This document shows positions 1-9,463 of a stretch of 64,000 bases of DNA, one piece after another. The stretch is from Candidatus Zymogenaceae bacterium (GTDB lineage: Bacteria; Desulfobacterota; Zymogenia; Zymogenales; Zymogenaceae), in NCBI GenBank assembly GCA_016931225.1, contig JAFGFE010000040.1:67149-131148 (forward strand), given 5' to 3'. The position numbers and the translations under genes were made by a program. Numbering within the stretch: the first letter of the stretch is position 1; each line of letters starts with the position of its first letter. Below the pieces are notes generated by a model that saw only the letters and a list, made by a program, of their open reading frames with translations, did no database searches and was not told where the DNA came from.

Positions 1-1
1 T

Positions 2-610
2 GACGACGTAAAGAATGACTTCTATAGCGAAATAAAGACAATCAAACAGCTCCAAAATATCCGAGAAGGAGATTTACCCGGCATCAATGACGTTCCCGTC
101 ATGTTGGAAAGCACAGAACTGGCTCACTCTTCCGAAAAATGCCATTTCAAGAAAACACCGGGGCAACAATCTTCCTTGTATGGAACAATGGTGATTACCA
201 ACAGCAAAGTATATTTTATCGGCACAAAAAAAAGTTTTAAATTTACATTAAAGAGTGTTTTTAATCTCTCGTATGACGGCGAACATATTTTCATAGACCG
301 TCAAGGTACCGGCAGGGGACATTATCGAGTCAAAGAGCCGGAAATCACTTTTGAATTATTATTGTATCTTGTCAGAAAAAACAATTTCCTCGTTGCACAT
401 AAAAATGAACGAGAACGATCACGTCACATACCCCAGGATGTCAAAGTTGCCGTTTACCATCGTGATGGGGGACGATGTGTAATCTGCAATAGTGATGTAG
501 GTCTGGAATTCGACCACATAATCCCATTTTCAAAGGGCGGTGCGAATACCGCGGAAAACATCCAACTCTTATGCCATGTCTGCAATCTGAAGAAGGGCGC
601 TCATTTATAG
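2..610 (+). CDS. HNH endonuclease with an N-terminal PH-like (bPH/GRAM-like) domain. The reading frame is open to the window edge, so the gene is probably 5'-partial.
   Basis: The C-terminal HNH motif is 'VYHRDGGRCVICNSDVGLEFDHIIPFSKGGANTAENIQLLCHVCNLKK'. Frame 2 is open with no stop from position 2 to the first ATG at 101. The gene is about 40% GC, against about 58% for the rest of the window. Confidence 0.7.
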   Translation, partial: DDVKNDFYSEIKTIKQLQNIREGDLPGINDVPVMLESTELAHSSEKCHFKKTPGQQSSLYGTMVITNSKVYFIGTKKSFKFTLKSVFNLSYDGEHIFIDRQGTGRGHYRVKEPEITFELLLYLVRKNNFLVAHKNERERSRHIPQDVKVAVYHRDGGRCVICNSDVGLEFDHIIPFSKGGANTAENIQLLCHVCNLKKGAHL

Positions 611-708
611 CTTAAGAAACTCTATAGTTTACAGATTAGCTCAATAATAACCCGCCGCGCCGCCAACCCCTTCCGGTTCATTGTGAATCGTTTGTACGAC
701 GGGCACCT

Positions 709-1359
709 CTACCAGATCCCCGGCACCAGCCGCTTTTTCTCCACCGCATAGGCTTCATACCCGTCCATCCGATACAGCGTCCGCTCTTCGATGAGTATTC
801 TGAGGATGATGGCCGGCGTCAGAAGAAAGAGGAAAAGGGCGAGTGTCACCAGGTTGAAAAAGAAGACTACAACCCCGATATTCGCGACGATCATCCCCAG
901 ATACGCCGGATGTCTCACGATCCGGTACGGTCCCGATTTCACGATCCGGTGATCCTCCACCTCTCTGACGATATGGGAATAGTATCTCCCCAGTTTCCGT
1001 ATCGCCCACTGGCGAAAGGAAACTCCCGATACAAATATCACCAGACCCAACGCATGCGGGAGGGTCAGCGACTCCGTAATGGGCGCATACAAGAGGGCCG
1101 AAAGAAACAGCACCGCCTGGCCGACGGCATATAAGAGGCACGTGCCGTAATCCCTCGTCCGATCGCCCTGGGTCGTCTCACGCTTCGACACCCCCATTTC
1201 CACCAGTATCCACGCGATATAGAGGATGGAAAAGAAGATATCGGCGTTCAGGGAGGCGACATGGAAGGATATCCCGCCAAGCCTGAGAATGCTTAAAAAC
1301 ACAATAAGTCCGATCAACACGATCGACATGACAAGAGGCATATAGTTCTTCATACTCAT
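709..1359 (-). CDS. Isoprenylcysteine carboxyl methyltransferase / phospholipid methyltransferase family membrane protein.
   Basis: Multi-TM protein carrying 'VKSGPYRIVRHPAYLGMIV', which is typical of the ICMT/PEMT/NnrU-like family. Confidence 0.6.
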   Translation of the reverse strand: MSMKNYMPLVMSIVLIGLIVFLSILRLGGISFHVASLNADIFFSILYIAWILVEMGVSKRETTQGDRTRDYGTCLLYAVGQAVLFLSALLYAPITESLTLPHALGLVIFVSGVSFRQWAIRKLGRYYSHIVREVEDHRIVKSGPYRIVRHPAYLGMIVANIGVVVFFFNLVTLALFLFLLTPAIILRILIEERTLYRMDGYEAYAVEKKRLVPGIW

Positions 1360-1495
1360 CCTTTGAGGGGTGTTTCATTTTAAAATACGGTTTTGCTATT
1401 GACGTATTCGAACGGATGCGTCAGTATAACCGGCTGAACATAAAACATCTTTCACTTCCGATGGACTTCATGATGACTCCGGCTCTGATCCCCGC

Positions 1496-4400
1496 TCAGG
1501 ACTTCCAAACGGAGTCCGTCGTGCCGCCTCGATCGAGGGATTCCCGCACCTTGGAGAGGAGTTTTTCGGCCAAGAAGGGCTTCCCGACAAACTCGACGCC
1601 GTCGTACTCCAGAAGCTTCATGTGCTGATCGCGATCACTGTACCCGCTGGCAAGCAGCACCCTGACACCCGGAGACAACTCCCTGATCTTATCCATGACC
1701 TCGTCCCCCTTCATCTCGGGCATGATGATATCCAGTATGACAAGATCGATGTCGATGTCCTCTCTCGTGAACAGTTCCAGGCCCTCCCGACCCGACGAAG
1801 CGGTATATACCTGATATCCCGCATCCTCCAGGATATTCTTAAGCAGCTTCAAGATTTTTTCTTCATCGTCGATTACCAATACTCTCTCTTTGCCCGTAAT
1901 CTTCGTCAATTCGGCTTTCTTTTTAAATTCCAGTTTGGCGTCCTCCGACACCGGCAGGTACACGTGTATCTCGGTACCCTCGCCCTCCGTGCTTGCGACG
2001 GTAATCTGTCCGCCGTGACCGGTCACGATGCCGTATACGACGCTCATACCCAGGCCGGTGCCCCCGACTTCCTTCCTCGTGCTGAAATAGGGTTCGAAAA
2101 TACGGCCCTTTGTGTATTCATCCATACCCTTCCCGGTATCCCGGACCATGATGTGGGCGTAGGTGTCCGGCTCCAGGTCCGCCGTTCCCGGGCGTTTCGA
2201 AGTAATCTCGACCTGTTCGGTTGTAATGGTCAGCTTCCCTCCTTCGGGCATGGCGTCCCGGGCATTGATCACCAGGTTCATAATCAACTGGCTGATCTGT
2301 GATTCATCCGCCTGTATGGGATTCAGGTCGTTGTCCGTCTTGAGCTCGATTTCAATGGATTTGTCGAAGGTCTTTGTGATCAGGTTGTACACCTCGATAA
2401 CCAACATGTTTATACTGACCACCCTCTTTTCGAGTCTCCCCTTTCTAGAAAACGCCAGCAGTTGACCCGTCAGGTCCGCCGCACGATACGACGACTCCTC
2501 GATCACCTCCAGGCCGTCGTAGAGGTCTCCGTCGGAAGTCACCTTGCTCTTGAGGAGTGATGCGTATCCGAGAATCGTGGTGAGGATGTTATTAAAGTCA
2601 TGGGCGATGCCTCCGGCCAGGGTGCCGATGGCCTCCAATTTCTGGGCATGCAGAAGCCGTTCTTCAAGCTTTTTTCGGTCACTGATGTCCTTTATAATGT
2701 TTTGATATGCGTACACATTTGCCATGTCGTCTTTCATAATCCGGGAGGTTATCAGACAATCTATCGGCGTCCCATCTTTTTTCTTCATGACCACATCGAA
2801 GTCCTTCAGCGTCTCCTTCGCATGAATCAGCTCCTGAAATCTCTTTCTGTCCTCCGGATTATAGTACAGCTCACTCAGGTCAAGGTTGAGCAGCTCCTCC
2901 CGGGTATATCCGAAAACCTCCTCACCGGCCGGATTGATATCAATAAATTTTCCGTTCACCGTCGTAATGGAAATAACGTCCATGGACGTCTCAAACAGAG
3001 AGCGGAACTTGCTTTCGCTTTCCAGCAGTGCCTGTTCCGCGATCTTTTCCTGGGTGATGTCGGGAAAGATGACCAATCCCGCCACGATTGCGCCCTTTCC
3101 ATCATAGATGGGCACGCCGTGAACCATTCCCCAGCGCTCGGTACCGTCCTTTCTAACCACCCGGATCTCCTCACCCGGAGTTGTGATCCCATTCAACGCC
3201 CGGGCCAGATGAAGCTCCGCAACCGGTATAACATTTCCCTGTTCATCATAGTCCGTCCAGGACCGGGCGAGATTGAAGATGTTTACGCCCGGCATGATGT
3301 CCGGCACATCATCCACTTTCAGAATTTTTCGGCATGCGTCGTTTGTGGCAAAGAGGGTGCCGTCTGTCTCGGCTATCATTATGGGAACCGGAGACTGATC
3401 GATGACCGAGCGAAGGAGCGTCTGCGCCCTGAGGAGATCTGCCTCCGCCTGTTTTCGCTCCGTAATATCAAGGGCCGTAAACGTCACGCCGCTCTCAATG
3501 TCACCGGGATCAAAAGGAGACGAGGTCAGCAGGACATCGATTGCCGTGCCGTCTTTCTTCACCAATCGGGTCTCCACCGATCCCTTGCCGAAGTTCGCTA
3601 TCTGATCGTATTTTTCCTTCCCAACATAATTAAATTCTTCATCGCTTTCATACACCATTCGGGCATTCCGCCCCAGAAGTTCCTCGGACGTGTACCCCAG
3701 CATATCGCAGAATTGCTCGTTGACCCATTGAATCACCCGATCCTTCACCAGTCCGATACCGACGGGAGAAACCTGGAGAATGCTCCTGAGCGTCGTCTCG
3801 CTTTTGGCGAGCTTTTCCTCCGCTTTTTTTCGATCGGTGATGTCCCGCGTCACCGACAGGACCCGTTCCCGCCCACCGATCATCGCCTTTTTGAGATCCA
3901 CCTCGACCCAGAGCGGATCCCCGGATTGGGTTTTGCCCCTCCATTCAAAGTGTTGCGGCCCCTCATCCCGCGCCCGGTGAATCCATTCCAGCGCCTCTTT
4001 GTCTGAATATGGATAATTGCCCGGGCTGAATCCACCCACACTCATTTGCAGGACTTCTTCCCGGGTAAATCCGATGAGATCGCATGTTGCGCGGTTCACA
4101 TCAAATATTTCCCCGGTATCGGCGTCATGGATGAACATGGCGTCGTTACCCGCGTTGAATATCTCCCGGTAGTTCCGTTCCGACGCACGAAGCTCCTCAT
4201 CGGCCAGCACTCTTTCGGTAATGTCGTTCCCGAACCAGACAACCCGAGAGATCTCTCCTTCCTCTTTGAGTGGATAGATATGATTGTGTATCCAGCGAAT
4301 CCCGCCGTCACGCCGCACAATGCGATATTCCAATTCAAATTCTTCGTCGATGTGTTCCACAAATATCCGGCCGACCCGCTCACGATCTTCCTCGTGAATC

Positions 4401-5320
4401 ATCTCAAACCAAATCGTGACGTCATTATACAACTCCTCCGCCGAAACACCGTATATGTGCTCAAATGCATCGCTGATATATAAGATCTTCTGAATCGGGG
4501 AAGAATACATCCCGAAAATCACCGGAATGACCCTGGCCATTGTATGGAAGCGTTCCTCGCTTTTATGAAGTTCCCGCTCGGCAAGCCGCATATCGGTAAT
4601 GTCCCGGGCAACGGCGAAGATGAGCTGTTCGTCGGGCAACGGATAGGAATTCCATGAAATCCACCGCCATCCACCGTCCTTTACGGTATACCGGTTCTGA
4701 AAGTCTTTGATAACATCACCTTTTTGAAGGGCCTGACCGACGCGAATCGTTTTGTCCTGGTCATCCGGATAAACAAAGGAAAGCCAGGGTCTGGACAGCA
4801 ATTCCTCTTCGGTCCATCCCAACTGCCGGGAAAAGGCGGGATTCACCTGTTTGAAATACCCGTCGAAACCGGCGATGCAGAGCATATCCACTGAATGATT
4901 AAAAAGAAGCTCCCGCTCTTTTTCCACCCTTCGTTTCTCGGTAATGTCCTCTCCGGAGCTGAGGGTGCCGATAACGGCGCCGAAGGAATCTCTGAGTATC
5001 TTGTTGTGCCAGGATATGAGACGCTGTTCACCGTTTTTGGTGACCACCATGCTTTCGAATTGCTTCTTGAAATCCGACGATCCCGAGACGATCTCCTCAA
5101 AAACAGTTCGGACTTCGTTCCTTTCCCGGTCCGTCAGGCAGGTTGTAAACCAGTCCCTTCCAATGAGGTCCTCCTGGTCCCACTCCAGGATGTATGCCCC
5201 CTTGCGGTTTATCAGGACCACCTTCCCGTCCCTGTCCAGAACCACGATCATCACCTCGGCAATATCAAGGTACTGCTTGGCCATTCCCGGTTCAAGGAGG
5301 ATGCTGATTTCTTTGTTCAT
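1496..5320 (-). CDS. Multi-PAS hybrid sensor histidine kinase with HisKA, HATPase_c and a C-terminal receiver domain.
   Basis: Several PAS/PAC-like segments; H-box 'HDFNNILTTILGYASLL'; G-box 'GTGLGMSVVYGIV'; receiver 'VLVIDDEEKILKLLKNILEDAGYQV...DLVILDIIMPEMKGDEV'. Confidence 0.9.
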   Translation of the reverse strand: MNKEISILLEPGMAKQYLDIAEVMIVVLDRDGKVVLINRKGAYILEWDQEDLIGRDWFTTCLTDRERNEVRTVFEEIVSGSSDFKKQFESMVVTKNGEQRLISWHNKILRDSFGAVIGTLSSGEDITEKRRVEKERELLFNHSVDMLCIAGFDGYFKQVNPAFSRQLGWTEEELLSRPWLSFVYPDDQDKTIRVGQALQKGDVIKDFQNRYTVKDGGWRWISWNSYPLPDEQLIFAVARDITDMRLAERELHKSEERFHTMARVIPVIFGMYSSPIQKILYISDAFEHIYGVSAEELYNDVTIWFEMIHEEDRERVGRIFVEHIDEEFELEYRIVRRDGGIRWIHNHIYPLKEEGEISRVVWFGNDITERVLADEELRASERNYREIFNAGNDAMFIHDADTGEIFDVNRATCDLIGFTREEVLQMSVGGFSPGNYPYSDKEALEWIHRARDEGPQHFEWRGKTQSGDPLWVEVDLKKAMIGGRERVLSVTRDITDRKKAEEKLAKSETTLRSILQVSPVGIGLVKDRVIQWVNEQFCDMLGYTSEELLGRNARMVYESDEEFNYVGKEKYDQIANFGKGSVETRLVKKDGTAIDVLLTSSPFDPGDIESGVTFTALDITERKQAEADLLRAQTLLRSVIDQSPVPIMIAETDGTLFATNDACRKILKVDDVPDIMPGVNIFNLARSWTDYDEQGNVIPVAELHLARALNGITTPGEEIRVVRKDGTERWGMVHGVPIYDGKGAIVAGLVIFPDITQEKIAEQALLESESKFRSLFETSMDVISITTVNGKFIDINPAGEEVFGYTREELLNLDLSELYYNPEDRKRFQELIHAKETLKDFDVVMKKKDGTPIDCLITSRIMKDDMANVYAYQNIIKDISDRKKLEERLLHAQKLEAIGTLAGGIAHDFNNILTTILGYASLLKSKVTSDGDLYDGLEVIEESSYRAADLTGQLLAFSRKGRLEKRVVSINMLVIEVYNLITKTFDKSIEIELKTDNDLNPIQADESQISQLIMNLVINARDAMPEGGKLTITTEQVEITSKRPGTADLEPDTYAHIMVRDTGKGMDEYTKGRIFEPYFSTRKEVGGTGLGMSVVYGIVTGHGGQITVASTEGEGTEIHVYLPVSEDAKLEFKKKAELTKITGKERVLVIDDEEKILKLLKNILEDAGYQVYTASSGREGLELFTREDIDIDLVILDIIMPEMKGDEVMDKIRELSPGVRVLLASGYSDRDQHMKLLEYDGVEFVGKPFLAEKLLSKVRESLDRGGTTDSVWKS

Positions 5321-5780
5321 AATATTCTTATTGATTCATTATCATACAATATAATATTTACAGGGGCATCAGTTGGAATTTGGAAAACTTACCTTCACAC
5401 GGAATATGTCATAACATTAATTATACGAATTTTCACACGATTTTTCCACTCTTTGTCATAGTTCTCAGGAAATCTCTCCAATGACCTAAAACAGTGTGCG
5501 TACCACCCCTTCGGCTCCTCCCCACCTACAACCACCGAATGAGGACGTACCAGAGAAGTTTTCCTTTCTGAGGGTACCCCGCACAGACTACACGGAGAAG
5601 ATGTTTGTTTAGGATGATAACAAAACGGCTTTATCGCGGCGAATGCTCGATTGCATACTATGCACGGAGATAATCCGACCAACGTGATGGGTATTCACGT
5701 ATGGCATGACCGTACAGGCATCGGAATATACGCCTCTCCGCACCGCACACCGGGAAACCGAAAGGAAATAACCGGCCGTA

Positions 5781-7142
5781 TTAAAAAAACCAGTCCCCTT
5801 CGGCGTGGGAAAGGGAGGGGTTGTCTCCGTCGGACAGCCAGAAGGTGCTCACTCCGGACGTACCGGCAGAGCTGCTCCAGGAGATCGTGGTGATAATTGT
5901 ATCCTCCGTCTGATCAATACTCACAAATGACCAGGTAATCCTCAAAAAATCGGCGGTTTCAAAGTATTCCCGCACCATATCTATAAGACCATACCGACTG
6001 CCGCCGATGCCGCTGTAGGAAAAATCGATCAGACCCGAAAGAGCCGTCGTATCACCCTCCTCCACGGCGTCTATGAAGTCCTCCAGAAACGATCGGGCGA
6101 TCCTCGAGACGTCTCTCCTTTCAATCGGAGGCCCCGGCTCCCCTTCGAAGGAAGAGTTCGGGCGCTTTTCGCTCCCCCGAAAGGTCTCGGTGCCCTCTCT
6201 CTCCCCCCCGGTGGGGATATCGGGCATATCTCCCGGAGATCCCAGGGCGATCGGCCCAGGCGAGAAGGATTCCCCGCCCTCGAACACCAGTTCCGCGGTC
6301 CAGGATCCCTCCTCGCCTTCGACGGGAATCGTCCCCCCTTCACCTGTGAAAATCGAAACGCCGCTTCCGGCGGTCCTTCCGGAAAGAATAACCCGACCAT
6401 CATCCCCAATGACGATCCGATCGATAACCGCATCGATCGACGCATCCATCGGGCGCACGGCGACCGTCAGCACAATCGAATCTTCCCCTGAATCCGGGGA
6501 CGCCTCCCGGGAGAACGATACGTTCCCCGCGGTGTCCGCCCCAAACGTCATCTCGATGGTACCGGGATGCTCCACCGACACCGTCATGATCCCGTCCCCT
6601 CCGCTCCAATCGACGCCGACGGCTTCGGTCTCCGGGACGTACTCCACCGCCGCGGAGAAGGCGCGCCCGTCGCCTTTAGATGCGAGGCGGAGGCCGGGCG
6701 CCGCGAGGGTGATCTCGCTTTCGTACCGGTCGGATGCGGGAGCGGTTATGTCCACCCTCCCCTGGGTAAGAATCACCGCCGTCACCGCCGTTTCCTCCCC
6801 GTCCCGGGTCACCACAGAAAGCTCCTCTATCTCCACCCCGCTCATGGGAGACAGAGTGATGAGGGTGTCGTCCTTGCACTTCAGGGAAACCTCACCGTCC
6901 GGCCCGGTGAATACGCGGTCGGCGTCCCGCACCCTCTCCATGCGAAAGAGCTCTCTCCAGATATTCTCTCCAGCATAGTTCACCTTGACAGAGCCGGAAA
7001 GCTCCACGGCTCGGGCCGGAACGGACCGGGATTCCTCTCCCAAGGAGGAAAAACCGGCGACGAAACACACCATAACAAAAAGCGCCGCCCCCACGGTCGT
7101 CTTTAAAAATCTCCGCGTCGTTATGATACGTATCATGTTCAA
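5781..7142 (-). CDS. FecR-domain signal-anchored periplasmic protein, cassette A. It has no cytoplasmic anti-sigma domain and carries a C-terminal conserved domain ending in GDWFF.
   Basis: N-terminal 'MNMIRIITTRRFLKTTVGAALFVMVCFVAGFSS' is a signal anchor. A FecR-like segment follows: 'LSGSVKVNYAGENIWRELFRMERVRDADRVFTGPDGEVSLKCKDDTLITL'. The C-terminal domain matches the paralogue at 9464..10747. The gene overlaps the upstream beta-barrel gene by 4 bp. Confidence 0.7.
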   Translation of the reverse strand: MNMIRIITTRRFLKTTVGAALFVMVCFVAGFSSLGEESRSVPARAVELSGSVKVNYAGENIWRELFRMERVRDADRVFTGPDGEVSLKCKDDTLITLSPMSGVEIEELSVVTRDGEETAVTAVILTQGRVDITAPASDRYESEITLAAPGLRLASKGDGRAFSAAVEYVPETEAVGVDWSGGDGIMTVSVEHPGTIEMTFGADTAGNVSFSREASPDSGEDSIVLTVAVRPMDASIDAVIDRIVIGDDGRVILSGRTAGSGVSIFTGEGGTIPVEGEEGSWTAELVFEGGESFSPGPIALGSPGDMPDIPTGGEREGTETFRGSEKRPNSSFEGEPGPPIERRDVSRIARSFLEDFIDAVEEGDTTALSGLIDFSYSGIGGSRYGLIDMVREYFETADFLRITWSFVSIDQTEDTIITTISWSSSAGTSGVSTFWLSDGDNPSLSHAEGDWFF

Positions 7143-8794
7143 AACTCCATATTAATTGACATTCTCCCGATCCTCTCACCGTATCGATCCGAGCCGTCGC
7201 TGGCCCGATCGTGGGTCGCCTCGTATTCCAGGGCGATCCATGCCGTCAGACCGTCTTTCTTTACCAGCACCTGGCTAAGCATCAGGAACAGCTCCCCCCG
7301 CCGGACGTTCGCCCGCTCCCGGCGATCCTCCACACACCCGGAACAGGTAACCAGGAGCGTTGTGTCGTACGGGGAAAACCTGCGGCAGACCACCTCTCCC
7401 CAAACATCCGCACCCAGCTTAAAATCGGTCGTCGGATACGGGCCTCCCTGAATTTCGTATCCCGCACTCATTGCACACCCGATCCGATAATCAAAACCGA
7501 AGGCCGTGTGGTGATGGCTCCATGAGCATTCCACGGCGTGGTTCTCCCGATCGACGCCGTCGGTGATGTGATTTGAGATGTGTTCATATACATATTCGAT
7601 CCCGTACTCGGTGTGCTCCCGGTCGCAGTCGGCGCCGAGGGTCAGGCGGAAGGTCTCCTCATCGACGCTCTTCGGGTCGTCAGTGGCGCGCGCGTCGAGA
7701 TAGTACACACCCGCCGTGAAAACCGGACCGGGACGCCCGCCGCCTGTACCGATCCGGGGCAGGTATTCCACCACCCATTCTGTTTCGATATGATGGGTGG
7801 AAAAGGATACCGGGGACGCCCCGGTCAGCCCGTCGCGATAAAAGCGCCAGTACCCCATGCAGCGCCACCGATCATTCGGTCGATAGTCGAAGCCCGCCGC
7901 CGCCGTCTCCCGATCGACGGCGTGCGTGCCCATCACCGCACGAAAACCCGGCTCCACATATTCATAGGCGAAAAGAAGTGAGAGATCGTCTTGAACCGGC
8001 TCCAGGGAGAGGGCCGCCCAGACGGCCGTATCCCTAACCGTCTCCAAGCGGGGGTTTCGCATGTCGTTATGATACAAGCTCATCGCCCCCTCTCCGGCCA
8101 GCACAACCCGATCGTCACAGAAAGAAAACCTCCCATCGATGGAGAAGACATCGTTTCGATACGCGGTTTCCGTTGAATCATAAAAGAGCTTGGTGATCTC
8201 CGCGTGCACGTACGACGCAGCAAGCGTCGCCCAGGGTCCGGGGGCGGCCACCAGCCGTGCTCCACCGAAGGCCCGCTCATACCTGACCAGGCGGCCGTCC
8301 CGATTGACACCCCCCAACAGGATCAGCTCCAGGCCGGAAGGATGAACGTACTTCCCCCGAACGCCGAAGAAGCCGCGATTGAAGGTGTAATTGGTGAACG
8401 ATGCGGCGGTATCCCCCAGCTCCAGGGACCACCCCTCGCCGGAAACGGAGACGGTGCCCGCGAGCAGGCGGACGTGCTCATCGCCGATCATGAGGGTTCT
8501 GTCGTCGGTGTGACGGACATCGATAAACCCGGAAACCTCAATACCGCCGCCCGTGGCATGGGAAAGACTCAGGCTCAGGCGCTCGGCATACAGGACGTTC
8601 CACTTCCGGTCGTCGTCCACATCGATTGAGGTGACCGCACGATTTCCGTACATCCGCTGGGCGTACATCTCCGCACGATATACGGCGTCTATCCCCCCGC
8701 CGTCCCAGTCCACGGCGTACGCGTGCCCGGAGGCGACAACAAGGAACACCCCCAACATCACGATGTAAATATATATAGTATACGATCGGCTCAT
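7139..8794 (-). CDS. Outer-membrane beta-barrel protein of an uncharacterized family, cassette A.
   Basis: Signal peptide ending in 'SGHAYA', then 'VDWDGGGID'. The C-terminal residue is aromatic ('MSINMEF'). Composition is beta-strand-rich. It is about 60% identical to the paralogue at 11858..13540. Confidence 0.65.
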   Translation of the reverse strand: MSRSYTIYIYIVMLGVFLVVASGHAYAVDWDGGGIDAVYRAEMYAQRMYGNRAVTSIDVDDDRKWNVLYAERLSLSLSHATGGGIEVSGFIDVRHTDDRTLMIGDEHVRLLAGTVSVSGEGWSLELGDTAASFTNYTFNRGFFGVRGKYVHPSGLELILLGGVNRDGRLVRYERAFGGARLVAAPGPWATLAASYVHAEITKLFYDSTETAYRNDVFSIDGRFSFCDDRVVLAGEGAMSLYHNDMRNPRLETVRDTAVWAALSLEPVQDDLSLLFAYEYVEPGFRAVMGTHAVDRETAAAGFDYRPNDRWRCMGYWRFYRDGLTGASPVSFSTHHIETEWVVEYLPRIGTGGGRPGPVFTAGVYYLDARATDDPKSVDEETFRLTLGADCDREHTEYGIEYVYEHISNHITDGVDRENHAVECSWSHHHTAFGFDYRIGCAMSAGYEIQGGPYPTTDFKLGADVWGEVVCRRFSPYDTTLLVTCSGCVEDRRERANVRRGELFLMLSQVLVKKDGLTAWIALEYEATHDRASDGSDRYGERIGRMSINMEF

Positions 8795-9246
8795 TGTCCC
8801 ACTGCATCACCCATGAGAGCAGGGCTTCATTATGGAGAGAAGGAGCCGATCTTGTCAACCGGAAAGTGGGCGGTCGCGATCGATGGAAACGACGGCCTCG
8901 CCTTACCTCTCCCGGACGATTGAGCGGTCGGATTATGGTTTTATACAGTTTTTAATTTGTCTCCGATTCATGCGGGAGACCGCCGGGTGATCCACGATGC
9001 GGAATAACTTCGAGGTGAAGATCGATGAGGACGCCGTTGGAGACATTTTGGTACCCCGGGTGGAGTTCCAGGACTCAGGCGATACACTCGCGGTGGGGGA
9101 AAACCCGGAGGACCGAACCGTTTTCCTCTTTGCGTGATGAAAAAGACCTGGGGAGCCAAACCGTCCCCCGAATCGCTTCATAAAAAAGATCCGGACGCTG
9201 AACCATCCCCCGGATCACGAGACGCGATATCGGAAGCGAATGCTAT

Positions 9247-9460
9247 AAATAGATGGAGTGCGCCGCCATCTTCGTCATGCCCGGCAGTGTCTCGATAGAC
9301 ACATCCTCACATGCGGCATAGGCGGGGACTCTCGCCGCCCTGACCACGCCGAACCCGGCCACGTCGATCGTGTTGTCGAAGCGAACCGACACGGAACCGC
9401 CAAGGTTAGAGGTTAGTGACGCCGCCTCAAGAGATCACACCGAGACGGAAACCACACGCC
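9247..9460 (-). pseudogene. Relic of the 3' end (about 70 codons) of an M20 peptidase gene. It is a paralogous copy of the C-terminus of the CDS at 13802..15064.
   Basis: Minus-strand translation gives 'TSNLGGSVSVRFDNTIDVAGFGVVRAARVPAYAACEDVSIETLPGMTKMAAHSIYL*'. The intact gene ends with 'ISGSTDLGFVSAHFDHKIDVAGFGVIRAANILAHAADEHVYIEDLLSMTKILVHYICF*'. There is an internal stop and no start codon, and the fragment abuts the stop of the CDS at 9464. Confidence 0.7.
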
Positions 9461-9463
9461 GCA

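Follow-up and report, generated by a model that had tools for sequence, protein, structure and literature searches.

A remnant of an M20 deacylase gene between two collinear barrel gene cassettes in a Candidatus Zymogenaceae genome

Gene order and collinear cassettes

In the genome of a Candidatus Zymogenaceae bacterium (GenBank assembly GCA_016931225.1), a 64,000-nucleotide stretch of contig JAFGFE010000040.1, positions 67,149 to 131,148, contains two adjacent gene cassettes separated by a remnant of the 3' end of an M20 metallopeptidase gene, an intact copy of which lies just upstream of the pair. The term window is used here for the whole 64,000-nt stretch, to which all coordinates refer; the cassette genes, the M20 gene, its remnant and the terminators all lie on the minus strand. 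The intact gene (13802..15064) encodes a 420-residue deacylase of the ArgE/DapE family, recognized by the Pfam models Peptidase_M20 (E=4e-30) and M20_dimer (E=2e-18) and by NCBIfam model TIGR01910 (230 bits, cutoff 217.6), and its last 52 codons are the source of the remnant. The order of open reading frames (ORFs), from upstream to downstream, is M20, barrel B, X1, X2, a 670-nt gap, barrel A, A_X, and a PAS histidine kinase (5320-1496, from the ORF map), which follows A_X as it follows the X gene in the related metagenome contig L015.

Each cassette pairs a gene for a probable outer-membrane beta-barrel protein with one or more genes for a membrane-anchored partner, termed X. Cassette A has barrel A (7139..8794, 551 amino acids) and A_X (5781..7142, 453 amino acids). 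Cassette B has barrel B (11858..13540, 560 amino acids), with a sub-threshold match to OMP_b-brl (E=0.015), followed by two X genes. The first, X1 (10993..11856, 287 amino acids), is an extra, truncated copy with only the N-terminal and middle parts of X, and is 29% identical to the N-terminal 230 residues of A_X and X2. The second, X2 (9464..10747, 427 amino acids), is the full-length X of this cassette, with an N-terminal membrane anchor, a beta-rich region, a linker of repeats, and a conserved C-terminal domain.

The two cassettes are collinear, each reading as M20 3' end, terminator, promoter-like site, barrel gene and X gene or genes, and together they form a direct repeat of about 4.6 kb. 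Ordered blastn matches join the barrels (8719-7046 with 13444-11766, 67% nucleotide and 53% amino acid identity), the starts of the X genes (7147-7046 with 10758-10657) and the 3' ends of the X genes (6077-5781 with 9751-9464, 73% nucleotide identity). Repeat families D2-D8 and D11 agree with this, so that adjacent direct copies are collinear over the whole unit, as expected of a tandem duplication. A preliminary description of this DNA, made from the sequence alone, had taken the locus for a tandem segmental duplication and had proposed aligning its two halves; the collinearity holds in that alignment.

Both barrel start codons are preceded, about 65 nt upstream, by a site resembling a sigma-70 promoter that matches 11 of the 12 consensus positions. 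The site of cassette A reads TTGACA-18-CATAAT (8829..8858) and that of cassette B, of a version we call B-type, reads TTGACA-18-TATGAT (13579..13608); both were also seen in alignments. Because each cassette keeps a promoter-like site and intact reading frames, both are probably expressed. Cassette A is not an orphan, having its own promoter-like site, full-length ORFs and evidence of purifying selection (ratio of nonsynonymous to synonymous substitution rates, dN/dS, about 0.24).

The M20 remnant

The remnant (9401..9243) corresponds to M20 codons 369-420 plus the stop codon. A blastn comparison of 5700-9463 against 9464-15100 aligns 9399-9241 with 13958-13800 at 76.7% identity over 159 nt (E=1.3e-29). 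An independent repeat search recovers the same pair as D6 (9234-9399 with 13793-13958, 76%), and tblastn with the M20 protein against the window finds 9398-9252 as a match to residues 370-418 (59% identity, E=4e-11). The similarity first reported in the preliminary description is thus real and far beyond chance, and the translation quoted there is correct in its frame. Its extent had been overstated: instead of 70 homologous codons at 9247-9460, only about 52 (9401-9246) correspond to M20, followed by a TAG stop codon at 9245-9243, and an in-frame TGA at 9437-9435 lies upstream of the homology. As had been claimed, the fragment has no usable start codon.

Codon analysis indicates that the fragment is non-coding. 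It differs from the intact gene at 38 of 156 nt, bearing out the earlier estimate of about 25% divergence, and the differences are spread evenly across codon positions 1, 2 and 3 (11, 15 and 12). The rates are 0.290 for dN and 0.307 for dS, a ratio of 0.94. Over the same 52 codons, M20 orthologs compared with one another give ratios of 0.02-0.25, with changes mostly at third positions. When substitutions are polarised with four relatives, 25 are specific to the remnant and four to the window's M20 gene, all four of the latter being synonymous. The remnant and M20 are more alike (77%) than are barrels A and B (67%) because the M20 side hardly changes.

The remnant is homologous to the C-terminal segment of the catalytic domain of an M20 family member (residues 369-420). 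It is far from the complete and selectively constrained frame expected of a functional ArgE/DapE-type M20 protein, having 52 codons, no start, an upstream TGA and a dN/dS of 0.94. Region 9401-9243 is therefore a dead, neutrally decaying fragment of an M20 deacylase gene, without a function of its own, and in annotation 9243-9401 is better marked as a pseudogene fragment than as a gene. The remnant was found in no other genome among the loci compared. Its base composition is normal, as are those of M20 and of the X2 C-terminal domain.

The junction with X2

The stop codon of X2 is TAA at 9466-9464, and the junction region (9402..9463) consists of spacer like that downstream of X genes followed by a segment that contains the breakpoint. 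At least 17 nt past the stop (9463-9447) continue the homology to X-downstream DNA, as seen in repeat D4 and in alignments. The next segment, 9446-9402, has no significant match to M20 or to the X-downstream region; local alignment of 9400-9463 gives p=0.18 against M20 and p=0.13 against the region downstream of A_X. A multiple alignment hints that spacer homology reaches about 9411-9418, short of proof. The breakpoint is about 20-60 nt downstream of the X2 stop codon, joined to about codon 368 of M20, and the remnant gives the limits of the rearranged unit to within about 45 nt. Earlier, the remnant had been said to begin directly after the X2 stop codon, with the breakpoint joining that stop to the interior of M20; the interior of M20 was correctly named as one side of the join, and the stop codon was not the other. 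The succession of X2 stop, at least 17 nt of spacer, the segment 9446-9402 and M20 codons 369-420 without a start is a novel junction with a truncated boundary gene, as a tandem duplication leaves behind.

Two independent Logan contigs of run SRR13394437 match the window at 100% identity over positions 1-10133 and 10171-15109. The junction of the X2 end, remnant and cassette A is uninterrupted within one of them, L027. The gap between the two contigs (10134-10170) falls in the 27-nt tandem repeat of X2.

Terminator copies

The M20 gene ends in an intrinsic terminator (13739..13772), a 12-bp GC-rich hairpin followed by T6, supported by folding and by its conservation in all relatives. The hairpin has a stability of -27.4 kcal/mol (z=-4.16), and none of 200 shuffled sequences was equally stable. 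The exact motif occurs once in the window, at the M20 terminator, and on that ground a dispersed repeat similar to a repetitive extragenic palindrome (REP) or a miniature inverted-repeat transposable element (MITE) was rejected.

Downstream of the remnant the preliminary description had placed one degenerate copy of this terminator; the copy is there, accompanied by others, so that T1, T2 and a partial T3 are now recognized. T1 (9182..9216), which was also found by a terminator scan and can be aligned to the M20 terminator and its counterparts in the relatives, is orthologous in position to the M20 terminator and folds at -14.5 kcal/mol before a T6 run (z=-1.6 against shuffles). T2 (9140..9174), the copy seen earlier, folds at -11.6 kcal/mol before a T5 run (z=-0.3); it is supported by blastn (9188-9141 with 13785-13739, 77%, E=1e-3), repeat D11 and the terminator scan. 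Both are weakened copies, keeping the form of hairpin and T-run at a stability no greater than that of shuffled sequence. T3 (9100..9128), recognized from repeat D11 and a 43-nt spacing, has only the right arm and T-run; 21 of 22 nt match the right arm of the terminator in relative L022, and it is 86% identical to the window's M20 terminator.

Beyond T3, about 100 nt at 9000-9099, ahead of the conserved block upstream of cassette A, have no match by blastn or tblastx in the window or in the fetched loci. This segment has no counterpart in cassette B or in any relative.

The spacers between stop codon and terminator also differ. The one after the remnant (9221-9242) is ancestral-like, CTTCCGATATC, resembling those of L015 and L022. 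The one after the intact M20 gene (13773-13801) is strongly derived and AT-rich, TTTTAAAAAC...TTTCAC, with TTTCAC common to L019 and L021. This pattern is weakly in conflict with the remnant being a very recent copy, the spacers being too short and too AT-rich to weigh.

Single-cassette relatives and two cassette types

Metagenome contigs of close relatives (L015-L018, L019/L020, L021, L022 and L024) encode M20 proteins with 90-93% amino acid identity to that of the window, and each has exactly one cassette after M20. In L015 the order is sigma-54 regulator, DUF5058 protein, 245-residue protein, M20, barrel, X and PAS kinase. Against six related metagenome loci with a single cassette behind M20, only the window genome has two. 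The ancestral locus is M20, one cassette and the PAS kinase, and two cassettes in tandem are the derived state, because the close relatives carry only one; the preliminary description, which had pointed to related genomes as a check, had predicted this. The single-copy state at the same locus in relatives is again what a tandem duplication leads one to expect. In 11 genomes (L002-L012) with more distant M20 orthologs, at 66-75% amino acid identity, neither a barrel gene nor an X gene lies nearby, and addition of the cassette behind the conserved block was confined to a narrow clade.

Cassette A is orthologous to the single cassette usually found in the relatives. In amino acid sequence, barrel A is 72-77% identical to the barrels of L015, L019, L021, L024 and P0004 and 63% identical to that of L022, while A_X is 55-63% identical to the X proteins of L015, L019, L021 and L024. 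The A-type version of the promoter, CCACTTTCCGGTTGACAAG...CATAAT, is common to the window's cassette A (winA in the trees below), L015, L019 and L021, all with a single X gene. Barrel B, by comparison, is 53% identical to barrel A and 52-57% identical to the barrels of all relatives, and cassette B as a whole has 51-57% identity to everything else.

Cassette B (winB) has several derived features in common with the cassette of L022: the truncated X1, a relic of a barrel 3' end directly ahead of X2, TATGAT as the -10 box, and 16 nt inserted into the 5' untranslated region (5'UTR). The L022 ortholog of X1 (248 amino acids) ends with the same motif as X1, IY.(K/R)KEDT. The only outgroup, L026 (138-3225), is an unrelated high-GC metagenome contig in which a barrel gene (32% identity) and a single X gene (34% identity in the C-terminal domain) are adjacent. 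Because the outgroup has a barrel and a single X, the A-type layout is ancestral, and recurrence in so distant a contig shows the barrel and X pair to be the conserved unit of this rare family.

No other B-type locus and no other two-cassette locus appeared when genomes were scanned with M20, metagenomes with the barrel alignment, and protein collections with barrels A and B and X2, or in a profile search of 1.84 billion representatives. Apart from single-cassette loci, the same searches returned only L022 (ENA ERZ21869602, contig ctg44738l), the one B-type relative, on a contig that stops within X2, and L026, the one distant outgroup.

Composition and internal scars of cassette B

Cassette B (9950-13740) is a block of low GC content, about 50% compared with 54.6% for the window. 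Barrel B has 50.8% GC against 56-61% in five other barrels, X1 has 49% against 56% in the L022 X1, and the N-terminal part of X2 has about 40% (37-47% along its length) against 61% in A_X. The block is bounded by M20 (56.5%) on one side and by the X2 C-terminal domain, the remnant and cassette A (55-60%) on the other; cassette A itself has 60% GC, and GC at third codon positions (GC3) in the intact M20 3' end is normal (0.79). Lysine stands in place of arginine throughout the cassette B proteins.

Two further relics lie in the spacer between X1 and X2. One, at 10800..10946, is the 3' end of an X gene with about 75 nt of X-downstream spacer; it was identified in a multiple alignment and as repeat D14, in which 10918-10944 matches 9505-9531 and 5822-5848 at 81%. 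The other, at 10748..10799, directly upstream of the X2 start, is the last ~50 nt of a barrel gene, aligned with barrels A, B and that of L022. The counterpart in L022, before its X2, lies at 6455-6575 (6500-6580 in the alignment). The two relics are traces of an earlier, nested duplication in tandem that took in the barrel 3' end, X and spacer; it happened before winB and L022 split, and its scar is of the same kind as the M20 remnant.

Within X2, the C-terminal 120 residues are 56-61% identical to A_X, and the two halves of the protein fit together as one full-length X homolog. Between them, the 27-nt tandem repeat (D1, 10018-10229) consists of six in-register 77-nt copies at 27-nt spacing, or about eight units, and encodes a nonapeptide linker rich in Gly, Ser, Asp, Ala and Glu; A_X is without this linker.

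Discordant trees and divergences

Trees of the cassette genes and of M20 disagree. In the barrel tree, an A-type clade of winA, L015, L019, L021, L024 and P0004 has 73% neighbour-joining bootstrap support, whereas winB is placed with L022 in 52% of replicates or is basal in 47%; winA and winB are never recovered as sisters. In the M20 tree the window is nested as sister of L019 plus L021 (95%). In a tree of the last 156 nt of M20, the remnant is sister to the window's own M20 (97%). Consistent with this placement, it carries four of the eight states that separate the window's M20 from all four relatives, with a chance probability of about 0.001.

Divergence at synonymous sites tells the same story. 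The dS between remnant and window M20 is 0.31, and over the same 52 codons the window differs from the relatives by 0.43-0.61. Barrels A and B differ by 0.89-0.94, barrel A differs from its orthologs by 0.60-0.84 (0.60 for L019/L021), barrel B from the L022 barrel by 0.82, and the C-terminal domains of A_X and X2 by 0.65. The dN/dS ratio is 0.38 for barrel A against B and 0.24 for A against its orthologs. The X2 C-terminal domain is 58% identical in amino acid sequence to that of A_X against 47-55% to those of relatives, and quartet distances give no support for a recent copy, which would have made cassette B young at both ends. Two copies made in the event that made the remnant should be each other's closest relatives and as old as the remnant; here A groups with the relatives (73%), A and B are never sisters, and the dS values are 0.89-0.94 against 0.31.

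The neutral decay of the remnant provides an internal clock, and that clock is at odds with the divergence of the cassettes; therefore, at least two old cassette types have been exchanged or sorted among close lineages. Such sorting is typical of surface proteins under diversifying pressure. Genes flanking the cassettes differ by about 11-12% between all lineages. Sliding-window distances from the DUF5058 gene to M20 reveal no recombination breakpoint, being flat at about 0.1-0.15 and uninformative.

Origin of the remnant

The remnant is the scar at the proximal boundary of a tandem repeat, the unit of which comprises the M20 3' end, terminator, promoter, barrel, X gene or genes, and about 20-60 nt of spacer. 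The explanation that we favour, and to which we would give roughly even odds, is that an already divergent B-type cassette was stacked beside the resident A-type cassette. A single unequal (illegitimate) recombination would have connected the interior of M20 to a site just past the X2 stop codon, placing B between M20 and the resident cassette, which would not itself have been copied. A related strain would probably have been the source of the incoming DNA, one end of which would have been anchored by homology within or beside the conserved M20/terminator region and the other joined illegitimately. Homology-facilitated illegitimate recombination, or unequal crossing-over between non-identical chromosomes, would produce this result. 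A variant in two steps is possible, in which the locus was duplicated in situ and homologous recombination then replaced the interior of the proximal copy. We infer the recombination mechanism and the outside origin of B from sequence comparison. The gene order of M20, B, remnant, A and PAS kinase is that expected of stacking, with an incoming module of a different type next to a conserved anchor gene and the resident module displaced behind a fragment of that anchor. From the remnant one can see the way in which an uncharacterised envelope-protein cassette acquired a second copy as its neighbour.

Several observations count against stacking. A donor was not found: no barrel more than 57% identical to B occurs among 5.8 billion proteins, no further B-type locus appeared in the metagenome scan, and the search of 1.84 billion representatives gave a small, distant family of 58 clusters whose identity to B was not reported and whose matches were not compared with B. 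Anchoring inside M20 predicts a donor-derived M20 3' end, yet the M20 3' end is of the window's own type, sister to the remnant, with normal GC3 and no breakpoint. A near-identical (conspecific) donor would fit the M20 3' end but would not explain the low GC of cassette B. The M20 3'-end data fit the two-step variant better, although that variant needs two events. The trees are neighbour-joining only, the barrel tree being rooted on L026 and the M20 tree on distant orthologs; the clade of winB and L022 has support of only 52%, and the placement of the remnant depends on 156 nt with four informative sites. The same signal could arise if the adjacent M20 gene had converted the remnant.

The strongest competitor, which we consider possible but clearly less probable, makes use of such conversion. 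An old duplication in situ, in a common ancestor, would have given copies that became A and B; differential loss would have removed B through recombination between M20 and remnant in the L015 and L019/L021 lines, and A in L022, while conversion by M20 "rejuvenated" the remnant. The structure is exactly that of a tandem duplication, and the locus demonstrably duplicates in tandem, as the relics of the X1/X2 event attest; the terminator itself is present in two copies and a partial third. The divergences are of similar order, in a star-like radiation with flanks differing by about 11-12%, and dS between A and B is only 1.1-1.5 times that between A and its orthologs. Collapse of B by M20/remnant recombination would restore a clean single-cassette locus such as the relatives have, and the edge of a conversion tract would explain why similarity drops sharply from 77% (9399-9243) to background (9400-9446). 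The cost of this explanation is at least three independent losses as well as gene conversion. Without conversion one would expect the remnant to fall outside the clade formed by the window and its relatives, whereas it is sister to the window's M20 at 97%; the sites that it shares with M20 are interspersed with differences and form no clean conversion tract. In addition, the GC content of B is 10 points below that of A, 4.5 kb away, which is hard to explain if both were always in the lineage.

The scenario of the preliminary description, taken literally, is a single duplication in situ in this lineage, covering the M20 3' end through the FecR-like gene or genes, after which the promoter-proximal copy B diverged very fast. 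The collinear repeat bounded by the remnant stands, the relatives have single cassettes, and the remnant is sister to the window's M20. Fast evolution is also in keeping with the barrel and X proteins, at 72-77% and 55-63% amino acid identity where M20 has 91-93%, and with the higher dN/dS of A against B (0.38) than of A against orthologs (0.24). What finds no support is the idea that the cassettes are paralogs born identical in the event that made the remnant; the trees, the dS values and the features of L022 speak against it. No sizeable fraction of bootstrap replicates makes cassette B the sister of A, and B is as close to L019 and L022 as to A, or closer (dN 0.30-0.31 against 0.34; dS 0.79-0.82 against 0.89). 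The features that B shares with L022 (X1, barrel relic, promoter, 5'UTR) would need convergence or export to L022, dS between B and L022 (0.82) exceeds that between A and L019/L021 (0.60), and the drop of 10 points in GC is left without an explanation. We consider this scenario improbable.

It is very improbable that the fragment is functional, either as a GTG-initiated ORF of about 48 codons or as a regulatory or terminator module insulating cassette A from read-through of cassette B. The frame is open over 9434-9246 and contains GTG codons, T1 and T2 keep a hairpin and T-run between X2 and the cassette A promoter, and the remnant has kept 77% identity to M20 where the barrels have 67%. Against this, a dN/dS of 0.94 and the even spread of changes over codon positions reveal no coding constraint, T1 and T2 are as stable as shuffled sequence, the slow change of M20 (four specific changes against 25 in the remnant) accounts for the higher identity, and conservation cannot be shown for an element present in no other genome.

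Chance similarity, or a chimeric assembly of two strains with different cassettes, is scarcely credible even for a metagenome-assembled genome in which the M20-B part is linked to the part with the X2 end, remnant and A only through the 27-nt tandem repeat where the Logan assembly breaks, given E=1e-29 for a pair found by three independent methods, the one uninterrupted and 100% identical Logan contig across the X2 C-terminus, remnant and cassette A, a divergence of 24% between remnant and M20 that no mis-joined M20 read would have, and the two X2 halves forming one full-length X homolog.

A broader proposal is that the stretch after M20 is a cassette-stacking site for a rare, fast-evolving surface pair of barrel and anchored partner, at which new versions are captured beside M20 and its terminator and older ones are moved further downstream. 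A 3' fragment of the gene upstream would remain from every such event, such as the M20 remnant here and the barrel relic before X2 in the window and L022. We regard this as doubtful. If true, the site would be a promoter-carrying analogue, for envelope proteins, of the orphan arrays discussed below, perhaps driven by phages or predators.

Comparison with known systems

The locus resembles a classical tandem segmental duplication in its adjacent, collinear direct copies, its novel junction into the interior of the proximal gene, the pairing of an intact gene with a 3' fragment, and the single-copy relatives. It differs in that the copies are not mutually closest, and the B type also occurs alone in another genome, with different base composition. 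A plain duplication predicts copies identical at birth, with equal ages of remnant and cassettes, while here dS is 0.31 for the one and 0.89 for the other.

A second comparison is with displacement arrays formed by homology-facilitated illegitimate recombination, the orphan modules of Rhs, contact-dependent inhibition (CDI) and type VI secretion system (T6SS) effector-immunity loci (Kirchberger et al. 2017, PMC5361080). That article cites Jackson 2009 and Poole 2011 on such arrays. As in the model proposed for those loci, a conserved upstream anchor gene has a new variable module directly behind it, with the older module pushed downstream behind a 3' fragment of the anchor, and different module types occupy the same locus in related strains. 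In contrast to those loci, the modules here are a probable barrel and a membrane-anchored partner with their own promoter rather than toxin/immunity pairs, and the displaced cassette A is intact and not an orphan. The M20 deacylase that serves as anchor does not belong to the variable protein, no tract from a donor was seen in that anchor, and there are only two modules instead of a long array.

Campbell-type integration, by a single crossover, of circular DNA carrying a gene fragment would likewise leave an intact and a truncated copy of the target flanking an insert. Here, however, neither the ORF list nor Pfam searches reveal an integrase gene, a plasmid or phage gene, or an att-like repeat within or beside the insert, and the inserted DNA is homologous to the adjacent cassette rather than being a mobile element. 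The remnant is an ordinary, if well-documented, evolutionary scar, representing no new mechanism or type of element, and it is mildly unusual only in linking two old cassette types at an envelope-protein locus that evolves fast.

Predicted products and neighbouring genes

The AlphaFold model of barrel A has an N-terminal helix like a signal peptide and is otherwise all-beta, with about 22 predicted strands, but its mean confidence score (pLDDT) is 38.7. The protein ends in ...MEF, that is, with a terminal Phe. The barrels have only faint, sub-threshold matches to OMP_b-brl and Porin_4, belong to no Pfam family and have no sequence match in PDB. The family is very small, with six matches in 5.8 billion proteins and, by profile search, 58 clusters in 1.84 billion representatives. 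The X protein comprises a membrane anchor at the N-terminus, a beta-rich part and, at the C-terminus, a conserved domain of alpha and beta structure; its model has a pLDDT of 35.8, and both models are of too low a quality for a test of the fold. For the function of both proteins, searches of Pfam, NCBIfam and PDB sequences yield sub-threshold matches only.

The label FecR-like, given earlier to X, is not sustained. A_X matches FecR (PF04773) at E=0.043 with 14.7 bits, below the cutoff of 24, X1 and X2 have no FecR match, and no gene for an extracytoplasmic function (ECF) sigma factor is adjacent. The membrane anchor, the beta-rich region, the faint match and the pairing with a probable barrel recall a FecR anti-sigma factor or signal transducer with its outer-membrane partner; the system differs in that the match is below threshold, there is no adjacent ECF sigma gene, and the barrel has no signature of a TonB-dependent receptor.

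Upstream of the cassettes, M20 is the last gene of a conserved block (13802-18117), also found in loci L015-L022, that encodes a sigma-54 response regulator, a DUF5058 membrane protein, an unannotated protein of 245 residues, and M20. In L022, the M20 gene (2497-3760) is split by a frameshift near codon 260 into two overlapping ORFs, each with about 90% identity to the M20 of the window; the split may be that of a true pseudogene or may come from an indel error, the contig being apparently a long-read one.

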